From contig JACPNH010000019.1 of assembly GCA_016185565.1 (NCBI GenBank), forward strand, positions 1-39,467: a DNA stretch of 39,467 bases. The letters are read 5' to 3'. The notes under the pieces are model-generated. The model was given only the letters and a program-made list of their open reading frames with translations. It was not told the origin of the DNA and did not search any database. The DNA comes from Candidatus Woesearchaeota archaeon (GTDB lineage: Archaea; Nanobdellota; Nanobdellia; SCGC-AAA011-G17; JAGVZF01). Each line of letters starts with the position of its first letter. Within the stretch, counting starts at the first letter, position 1. The position numbers were made by a program, and so were the translations under genes. Shown here one piece after another: positions 13,686 through 26,220 of this stretch.

Positions 13686-13791
13686 GTTAAATCTTAAAAC
13701 TATCAAATTGAGAATATATTAGCTCCCTTTAACGCAACAATGCATAATATTAGAAACCTTTTTAAAGAATTTTCTATCCAAGTTCAGATAG

Positions 13792-13877
13792 GCCCCGGTA
13801 GCTCAATCTGGTAGAGCTCACGGCTGTTACTACTAGCTGAAACCGTGTGGTTGAGGGTTCAAATCCCTCCTGGGGCG
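13792..13877 (+). tRNA. tRNA-Asn(GTT) with a 12-nt intron at 37/38 (13830-13841)
   Basis: Acceptor GCCCCGG/CTGGGGC+G, anticodon stem CACGG/CCGTG, CT-GTT-A, T-loop TTCAAAT; C32 pairs with the antepenultimate intron G. Confidence 0.92.
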
Positions 13878-13886
13878 CATTTTTTC

Positions 13887-13900
13887 AAAAACTTTATAAA
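13887..13900 (+). promoter_or_regulatory. BRE/TATA promoter of tRNA-Ile
   Basis: AAAAAC-TTTATAAA ends 26 nt upstream of G13926. Confidence 0.65.
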
Positions 13901-13925
13901 GATTCTTTAATGGAAATTTTTCGAT

Positions 13926-14163
13926 GGGCTCGATGGTTAAGCTCAGTAGTGGAAGTTTAACGACTGCTAAAGCTCGTAGCTTAGACAAAGTTTAAACTTT
14001 GGAGCAACCTGGCTAGAGCACTCGTCAGCTTTGCTAAAAAGTTGGGTGAAACTGATAGGTTGAGCAACTTCTCATTTCCACGGAGGTGAGATATAAGAGC
14101 GATGCTCTTCTGTTGCAAGACTCACAAATCGAGAGGTCGCCGGTTCAAATCCGGTCGGGCCCA
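13926..14163 (+). tRNA. tRNA-Ile(GAT) with four introns (7/8: 13933-13976; 15/16: 13985-14007; 30/31: 14025-14050; 37/38: 14058-14127)
   Basis: Joining exons of 7+8+17+7+36 nt gives a 75-nt cloverleaf: GGGCTCG TA GCTT AGCCTGGCT AGAGC A CTCGA CT GAT AA TCGAG AGGTC GCCGG TTCAAAT CCGGT CGGGCCC A. Each junction has a BHB-like central helix. Confidence 0.85.
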
Positions 14164-14171
14164 CATTTAAA

Positions 14172-14507
14172 ATGAACTATTTGTTTGTGTGTACATATAA
14201 TGTAAATAGAAGTGTTGTAGCTGCTGAAGCGTTTAAAGAATTGTTAAAGAAACATGGAATAAATGGGCAAGTTAAGCATGCTGGTGTTTCTGAACTTGCA
14301 AAGAACAGAATCTCTAAAGAGCTAATAGAATGGGCTGACAAGATTTTTGTGATGGAAAACTTTCATAAAGATTTTATTTTAAAAATAGCGCCCGAAGCAA
14401 GGAATAAGATAGAAGTTTTAGGTATAGAAGATTTATATGGAGTAAATGACCCTTATTTATTAAAAATATTAAAAGAAAAATTACAAAAGGAATTAAAAGA
14501 TGAATAA
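14172..14507 (+). CDS. Low-molecular-weight protein-tyrosine phosphatase/ArsC-like protein
   Basis: LFVCTYNVNRS P-loop (CX5R) and EWADKIFVME. Confidence 0.9.
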   Translation: MNYLFVCTYNVNRSVVAAEAFKELLKKHGINGQVKHAGVSELAKNRISKELIEWADKIFVMENFHKDFILKIAPEARNKIEVLGIEDLYGVNDPYLLKILKEKLQKELKDE

Positions 14508-18723: not shown

Positions 18724-18827
18724 TGGGCCCGGGCAGATTCGAACTGCCGACCTCCACCTTGTAAGGGTGGCGTCATTTGCGGGTTTCTTATTTTTAATTA
18801 TTAAACTAACCGCTAGACTACGAGCCC
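18724..18827 (-). tRNA. tRNA-Val(TAC) with a 31-nt D-loop intron (18777-18807)
   Basis: Mature sequence GGGCTCG TA GTCT AGCGGTT^ATGAC G CCACC CT TAC AA GGTGG AGGTC GGCAG TTCGAAT CTGCC CGGGCCC A; BHB with central helix GCGG/CCGC and bulges TTA/AAA. Confidence 0.93.
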
Positions 18828-26104: not shown

Positions 26105-26220
26105 CGCCGGAACTGGGATTTGAACCCAGATCTCCGTTAGGAGCCAGCTACCTAGTATTCTTTCCAGGTTCACCTTTCTTTAAAGAAAACTGGTGCCATA
26201 CCAGGTTAGGCGATTCCGGC
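26105..26220 (-). tRNA. tRNA-Ser(GGA) with two introns (30/31: 26169-26189; 37/38: 26150-26161)
   Basis: GCCGGAA/TTCCGGC+G73, CCAG^C CT GGA A^A GCTGG, long variable arm CTCC-TAAC-GGAG; BHB central helices CACC/GGTG and CTGG/CTAG. Confidence 0.92.

Follow-up and report, generated by a model that had tools for sequence, protein, structure and literature searches.

The origin of archaeal tRNA introns is an open question, and it is raised sharply by a tRNA-Ile gene in which a 44-nt insert stands at the very end of the 5' acceptor strand: is this insert spliced as an intron, and how did it come to lie there? The window analysed (a 39,467-nt stretch, contig JACPNH010000019.1 of assembly GCA_016185565.1) belongs to a metagenome-derived genome (the host, G000) of 0.80 Mb in 53 contigs, with about 32% G+C, 84% completeness and 2.3% contamination. 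The host is a small-genome, Woesearchaeota-like DPANN archaeon, and its DNA has been detected in metagenomes from groundwater.

A tRNA-Ile(GAU) gene in five exons

Positions 13926-14163 of the window were found to hold a tRNA-Ile(GAU) gene of five exons and four intervening sequences, I1–I4 (Table 1). When the exons were joined by their coordinates, a 75-nt tRNA-Ile(gat) was obtained that was accepted by ARAGORN and formed a perfect cloverleaf, with the 7-bp acceptor, D, anticodon and T stems all intact. The earlier note had placed GGGCTCG, a 44-nt insert, a GCTCG repeat, exon 2 and CGGGCCC at these same positions, and its view that the insert, here I1, interrupts a real tRNA-Ile(GAU) gene is borne out by the joined exons; the presence of four intervening sequences in the gene, as well as the lack of outer helices in the I1 motif described below, had escaped it. 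The gene was seen neither by ARAGORN nor by Rfam when both were run on the window, because it is broken four times, and with 238 nt it is by far the longest tRNA gene of the host. A scan of the 84%-complete assembly against the tRNA list gave no second GAU anticodon arm within a tRNA.

Altogether, 32 host tRNA genes were detected, 26 by Rfam and 6 by a scan for T-arms and then for the acceptor strand, and about 20 of the 32 were interrupted, frequently in the D-loop, with more than one interruption in several of them. The Rfam lists for the family were used for coordinates only. BHB-guided enumeration of introns was dropped, since its lax criteria returned 128-1356 candidates per gene, and the calls of ARAGORN with the intron option were found to be unreliable. 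Elsewhere in the window, an Asn(GUU)-type tRNA with a canonical intron of 12-13 nt (miscalled Ser(act) by ARAGORN), a Val(UAC) tRNA with an insert in the D-loop (33 nt aligned against 1 in the model) and a class II tRNA with one in the anticodon loop (37 nt against 4) were also observed.

Table 1. Coordinates of the tRNA-Ile(GAU) gene and of other features discussed (window positions unless a locus or contig is named).
Feature	Position	Strand	Basis
TATA-like box TTTATAAA, tRNA-Ile promoter	13893-13900	+	sequence, spacing, homology to the G001 box
Exon 1, GGGCTCG, tRNA positions 1-7, 5' acceptor strand	13926-13932	+	sole 7/7 partner; follows conserved promoter and leader as in G001
I1, 44 nt at 7/8, ends AGCU-CG, repeating GCUCG of exon 1	13933-13976	+	removal with I2-I4 restores the tRNA
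Exon 2, TAGCTTAG, positions 8-15	13977-13984	+	sequence and joined-exon cloverleaf
I2, 23 nt at 15/16, central helix GCUU/GAGC 4/4, intron hairpin h2 = 8	13985-14007	+	motif counts
Exon 3, positions 16-30	14008-14024	+	joined-exon cloverleaf
I3, 26 nt at 30/31, central helix CACU/GGUG 4/4, h1 = 2, h2 = 7	14025-14050	+	motif counts
Exon 4, ACTGATA, positions 31-37, anticodon GAT	14051-14057	+	joined-exon cloverleaf
I4, 70-nt canonical intron at 37/38, central helix 3/4, h1 = 1, h2 = 3	14058-14127	+	motif counts
Exon 5, positions 38-73: T-arm, CGGGCCC, discriminator A; no encoded CCA	14128-14163	+	sequence, joined exons
15/16 intron copies	13985-14007; L023 120-141 (-); L011 1129-1150; L012 1510-1529		
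tRNA-Leu(UAA) with 8/9 intron	L032 26-142 = G000:C18:30810-30926	+	
tRNA-Phe(GAA)	G000:C3:4740-4875	-	
Ser(GCU)-type tRNA	G000:C5:23928-24046	+	
Asn(GUU)-type tRNA	13792-13877	+	
Val(UAC) tRNA	18724-18827	-	
Class II tRNA	26105-26220	-	
EndA	L021 1474-2028 = G000:C44	-	PF02778 and PF01974
RtcB match	G000:C11:19256-20431	-	E 1.7e-142

In a metagenome-derived assembly of 53 contigs, an insert of this kind might be an artefact or a chimera, an explanation to which next to no credence can be given: the sampled 31-mers of 13700-14400 were present at 100% in four runs, and independently built contigs of two of these runs, which may be source samples, matched 13850-14163 with 0 differences. No RNA run was among those listed for 13700-14400.

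The GCTCG repeat around I1 lies at 13928-32 and 13972-76, its second copy forming the 3' end of the insert. Within the 480 nt scanned upstream of the T-arm, GGGCTCG was the only heptamer pairing 7/7 with the 3' acceptor strand CGGGCCC (followed by A, together 14156-14163), as the earlier note had it. Such heptamers are rare in the genome (197 in 1,602,918 positions, about 0.012 per 100 nt), and AAGCTCG, directly 5' of position 8, pairs at 5/7 only. The first base of the TATA-like box lies 33 nt upstream of 13926 and its end 25 nt; YTTAWA starts 30-35 nt upstream of +1 in 19 of the 32 host tRNA genes, 33 nt being the modal spacing. The promoter had previously been attributed to the first copy of the repeat, and this attribution holds by spacing and by homology, since in a relative of the same genus (G001) the homologous promoter and leader (TTTATAAA..ATTCTTT..GGAAAT) adjoin an uninterrupted GGGCCCG-TTGCATAG.

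The second copy does directly adjoin position 8, and Thg1-like proteins carry out 3'-5' repair of tRNA 5' ends in some archaea, so that the mature tRNA could be imagined to start at AAGCUCG (13970) or at G13972, with the first copy as leader and the mismatched 5' end repaired or edited. Such a start is very improbable. Besides the 5/7 pairing, the promoter stands 77 nt from the second copy, promoter and first copy are orthologous to the uninterrupted gene of G001, and no gene of the Thg1 family (PF04446) was found in the 84%-complete host genome by a profile search that detected the control genome.

Splice motif and splicing machinery

The junction of I1 can slide through six equivalent registers, from 2/3 to 7/8, and a central helix of 4/4 was obtained only at 7/8, the others reaching 1-2 of 4, which agrees with the placement first proposed. 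In register 7/8, the helix GGCU/AGCU pairs G2-U5 with 13971-74 and is flanked by symmetric 3-nt bulges, CG|A and CG|U. The chance of a 4/4 helix is about 2% per register, and had the insertion duplicated GCUCG, the helix would result almost automatically, so that it does not count as independent evidence of function. With h1 = 0 and h2 = 1 bp, the motif lies outside the hBHBh' and HBh' forms, which have at least one outer helix; outer helices are present in I2 and I3 (Table 1) and in the 8/9 intron of tRNA-Leu(UAA). Forcing the I1 BHB was found to cost +8.7 kcal/mol locally (-7.7 vs -16.4) and +17.6 kcal/mol in the full precursor (-64.9 vs -82.5).

On balance, I1 is probably, at roughly 0.6, a recently acquired, lineage-specific BHB intron at 7/8 of the only tRNA-Ile(GAU) gene found in the assembly, and a small further share of probability falls to its removal by a variant cleavage route. 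The TATA-like box would set the start of transcription a few bases upstream of 13926. The 4-bp helix between G2-U5 and AGCU, with the unpaired CG|A and CG|U on its flanks, would be recognised by EndA, which would cut after G7 and after the second GCUCG; the 7-nt 5' exon would stay held on the 3' acceptor strand and would be joined to U8 by RtcB (predicted junction GGGCUCG|UAGCUUAG), and the short leader would be trimmed by RNase P.

RtcB and RNase P RNA (145 bits) are both present in the host genome. The RtcB match lies within an 898-aa open frame of about twice the usual length, which may indicate an intein or a fusion. A single EndA gene was found in the 84%-complete genome, in which a beta subunit may be missed; it encodes 184 aa with the N- and C-terminal endonuclease domains. 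No gaps are needed to align the protein with the strict alpha4 enzyme of M. jannaschii. It matches the alpha subunit of N. equitans best, but is without the 6-residue insertion of the latter before the catalytic His. Enzymes known to take relaxed motifs are of the (alpha-beta)2 or epsilon2 type or carry a specific-loop insertion. The nearest public relatives of the enzyme come from MAGs labelled Woesearchaeota or Nanoarchaeota. Most of the introns carried by about two thirds of the host tRNA genes are non-canonical, despite the single alpha4-like EndA.

A motif without outer helices that lies far from the predicted minimum free energy, next to an EndA resembling the plain alpha4 type, would also suit a recent disabling or neutral lesion that is spliced poorly or not at all. 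The gene would then be a young pseudogene, and a working tRNA-Ile(GAU) would lie in the unassembled 16%; a genome 84% complete has room for a second gene, and little can be concluded from intact exons after so recent an insertion. Such a lesion is nevertheless rather unlikely. The small DPANN genomes considered here have one gene per isoacceptor, and G001 (96% complete) has one Ile(GAU) locus. The cut sites given by the sole 4/4 helix restore the tRNA exactly. Contigs from two samples carry the sequence unaltered, and no variant free of the insert was seen, although contigs can hide rare variants. Additionally, the lineage keeps an 8/9 intron that is built on acceptor bases.

This last intron, of 31 nt, interrupts the host tRNA-Leu(UAA), of which Rfam matches model positions 9-63 only. 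The Leu(UAA) 8/9 intron was found in five genomes of three genera (G000, G001, G003, G006 and G024), with a central helix on acceptor positions 3-6 that is always 4/4 (GAGG/CCUU, GAGG/CCUC, GGGG/CCUC twice and GGGG/CCUU), an h1 that is always 3 bp and intron hairpins divergent in sequence; forcing its BHB costs +4.2 kcal/mol. The conservation of this intron implies that the machinery of the lineage handles motifs competing with the acceptor stem. In the same genes, a conserved leader was observed to pair with exon 2.

If I1 is an intron, its removal could also proceed through alternative half-motifs made from the three AGCU/GGCU copies (13927-30, 13940-43 and 13971-74), with two separate cuts, the 5' site being cut in a loop two bases after the G2-U5 helix. 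The minimum-energy fold predicted for the full precursor has the acceptor stem formed and an h-B-H at the 3' site, which falls in a 2-3-nt bulge between helices 13940-43/13971-74 and 13935-39/13977-81, and the intron stretch GGUUAAGCU is the complement of positions 9-17 in the exons. This route is improbable, as it needs an endonuclease that cuts single bulge or loop sites, an ability that PMC5829648 ascribes to (alpha-beta)2 and epsilon2 enzymes bearing specific loops, whereas the host EndA is alpha4-like; moreover, the symmetric partner site of the internal helix predicts an aberrant cut after 13945.

Filled and empty sites and the origin of the insert

The alignment with orthologous loci that had been suggested as a check yields insert-free genes. 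I1 was absent in all 19 of the 19 other loci from relatives, where the heptamer next to position 8 pairs 7/7, and the gene downstream of tRNA-Ile is syntenic between the host genome and G001. An environmental contig from a different study (X7, 16.6 kb, about 91% identical) reads GGGCTCA|TAGCTTAG|CCTGG at the site; its alignment covers 13879-13916 and 14008-14200 and shows 16 differences and 6 gaps. Between these two parts it reads GATTCTTAAGGGCTCATAGCTTAG, and it has neither I1 nor I2 while keeping I3 and I4. I2 is absent in G001 as well. Pairing is preserved by all the exon differences between the host and the X7 contig, namely G7>A together with C66>U, the exchange of C50/G64, and U65>C. At both empty sites, GGGCCCG|TTGC in G001 and GGGCTCA|TAGC in the X7 contig, the repeat unit occurs once. 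By these alignments, I1 is a lineage-specific insertion. 'Introns' of 145-349 nt reported by a spliced aligner in L001, L003, L013 and L016 were rejected as artefacts.

The earlier note had pointed to a resemblance of the repeat to a target-site duplication. The 5-nt repeat is real and is the longest found here, against 0-3 nt of boundary microhomology in 31 other introns of Ile-type loci. The reading as a duplication is not established, given that no copies of I1 were found and that the other inserts have 0-3 nt; furthermore, three of the five repeat bases follow from the self-complementary GGCU/AGCU helix, which weakens the evidence, and a target-site-duplication origin is only suggestive. 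A comparison of 19 interrupted genes of G000 with G001 gave microhomologies of 5 nt for Ile I1, 0 for Ile I2, 0 for the Phe 15/16 insert, 1 for the Phe 26/27 insert, 0 for the 19-nt insert of a Ser-type tRNA and 3 nt for an Ile insert present in G001 only. Between G003 and G006, two clean insert events with 0 nt each were recognised by eye, in a comparison in which a good partner was lacking for 12 of 20 genes and the alignment was ambiguous in several cases.

The search for copies of I1 was negative at each level. The best other match within its own genome by blastn-short was a 12-nt exact match (E 1.3), a BLAST search of the order (240 genomes) with 13915-13990 turned up four short matches, which are at chance level (E 0.015-0.04), and nothing beyond chance was obtained in the 239 genomes other than the host. 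Similarly, a metagenome collection gave 0 matches both to a 22-mer from I1 and to an exon pattern in which two gaps were variable. In these searches, I1 was found neither to recur elsewhere nor to bear features of a transposable element.

Local similarities of I1 were evaluated with shuffled sequences. A 10-mer, GGTTAAGCTC, is common to I1 and the canonical Ile intron of G001 (reached by 30 of 2000 shuffles), and a 9-mer is common to I1 and an intron of G006 (99 of 2000); both are post hoc and weak. The possibility that I1 is a decayed copy of sequence from its own gene was examined by local alignment, and the scores were reached by 172 (mature tRNA), 342 (rest of the gene) and 322 (upstream) of 2000 shuffles. 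For tRNA positions 8-37, the numbers were 139, 2721 and 1199 of 10000 shuffles for global, end-free global and local alignment, respectively. In the comparison with the leader and 5' end of the relative, 440 of 10000 shuffles attained the score, as did 225 of 5000 segments taken at random from the window. Taken over the tRNA 5' half, the leader of the relative and the canonical intron of the congener, the similarities have p values of about 0.014-0.27 and are post hoc. In addition, CGACTGCTA (13961-69), lying flush before the second GCTCG copy, resembles positions 29-37, a likeness also seen post hoc. Such similarities are suggestive at best, and a tandem-duplication origin of I1 is not claimed.

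A more specific history can be put forward tentatively, although it is unlikely to be correct: I1 would be an intron caught at birth, when a short insertion duplicated the self-complementary acceptor site G-GCU-CG. Since GGCU pairs with xGCU, duplication alone gives rise to a 4-bp helix in which each strand has the same 2-nt overhang. If this were true, a ready-made BHB core would result, symmetric cuts would restore the tRNA exactly, and the insertion would be spliceable, and therefore tolerated, from the first generation; the filled site of the host and the empty sites of G001 and the X7 contig would make a BHB-intron gain of this type directly testable. In a variant of this idea, the insert may be the scar of integration and excision of a mobile element at the tRNA 5' end.

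Other introns of the lineage and known systems

The 15/16 introns were found to be of two sequence types, which are common to different tRNA species and genera: the first (AAACAT..ATGTTGAGCAA) in the tRNA-Phe of G000 and the tRNA-Ile of G004, the second (ACAAA..TTTGGAGCAA) in the tRNA-Ile of G000 and G052. This distribution suggests that 15/16 introns are copied between tRNA genes with the same D-arm. A 30/31 intron ending in GGTGAA is also present in G001, G019, G021 and G052 and in another tRNA of G010. I4 is spanned by BLAST similarity of 78-83% in G019, G044 and G023. The canonical tRNA-Ile(GAU) intron (62-77 nt; I4 and L002, L003, L004, L006 and L008) retains in several families of the order the core TCTCATTTCCACGGAGGTGAG ... 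AAGAGCnnTGCTCTT, a conservation far exceeding what a BHB needs, and the core matched no Rfam family at the gathering score.

In tRNA-Phe(GAA), inserts are located at 15/16, about 26/27 and 37/38 in the host, against the canonical one only in G001 (L157); intron content, to judge from such pairs, is turning over fast within the genus. When the Ser(GCU)-type tRNA was compared with its counterpart in G001 (L164), a 19-nt insert at about 29/30 was observed in G000 only; by eye, its central helix is self-complementary (GCGC/GCGU) and its last six bases repeat four of the six exon bases before the 5' site. Two Ser-type tRNAs, L193 of G003 and L209 of G006, are identical at 96/96 positions except for a 27-nt difference that includes the anticodon region, and the shorter copy, in G006, may be a broken gene or an assembly fault.

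Thermoproteales are known for non-canonical BHB introns, of which one gene may have several and which occur even at 3/4 within the acceptor stem (Sugahara 2008, via PMC4090602 and PMC4033280), and a maximum of three introns per tRNA gene is stated (PMC4033280; PMC8450103). As in Thermoproteales, the introns described here occupy many tRNA positions, occur several per gene, leave very short 5' exons and have splice sites set by a 4-bp helix and 3-nt bulges. The differences from Thermoproteales are a DPANN host in which a single alpha4-like EndA stands in place of an (alpha-beta)2 enzyme carrying the Crenarchaea-specific loop, an insert at 7/8, an I1 motif from which both outer helices are missing, and four intervening sequences in one gene, which exceed the stated maximum of three. 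The earlier note had called acceptor-region introns a very unusual position, which is an overstatement in view of the published 3/4 intron (PMC4090602) and of the conserved Leu 8/9 intron of the same genome. I1 is probably a further case of the known archaeal BHB intron kind, unusual and not unprecedented. In a literature search to which the position list of Sugahara 2008 and the supplements of the Asgard preprint discussed below were inaccessible, neither introns at 7/8 or 8/9 nor four-intron tRNA genes in Woesearchaeota were found described.

Alpha4-type EndAs in DPANN have been linked to increased disruption of tRNA genes by Kaneta 2018 (PMC5829648), where tRNAscan-SE predictions, which covered one Woesearchaeota genome, gave incomplete tRNA sets that imply hidden disrupted genes; an epsilon2 EndA is known from ARMAN (PMC3239211). 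The host tRNA-Ile is a hidden disrupted gene of the kind foreseen by Kaneta 2018, in whose available text neither acceptor-junction introns nor four-intron genes are described. A 2026 preprint on Asgard archaea reports up to five intervening sequences per tRNA gene and a few inserts in the acceptor region, and its census identified no general path by which introns arrive. The present locus resembles that census in that many interrupted genes are missed by standard annotators and recent gains recur on terminal branches; it differs in superphylum, in offering a filled and an empty site between near-identical relatives and in its 5-nt boundary repeat.

Intron transposition between tRNA genes has been reported for Thermoproteales (Fujishima 2010, via PMC4033280 and PMC4090602). 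The 15/16 intron of the I2 type, which recurs with near-identical stems in the host tRNA-Phe and the tRNA-Ile of G004, is similar in this respect, unlike I1, which is without a similar copy in the sequences searched. Integration of mobile elements at tRNA termini leaves direct repeats and has been proposed as a route of intron gain (Sugahara 2012, PMC3293823). As in that proposal, part of the tRNA 5' end is directly repeated on the two sides of I1 and a relative has the uninterrupted form; in contrast to it, the repeat is 5 nt, the insert is 44 nt, and there is no integrase, element remnant or significant similarity.

With filled and empty alleles among near relatives, the locus offers a very recent, datable gain, and it offers a position at which the splice motif must compete with the acceptor stem. 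About two thirds of the host tRNA genes are interrupted, even though the only endonuclease detected looks strictly alpha4. The locus further shows that essential tRNA genes of DPANN genomes escape standard finders, which matters for estimates of completeness and for claims of missing tRNAs.
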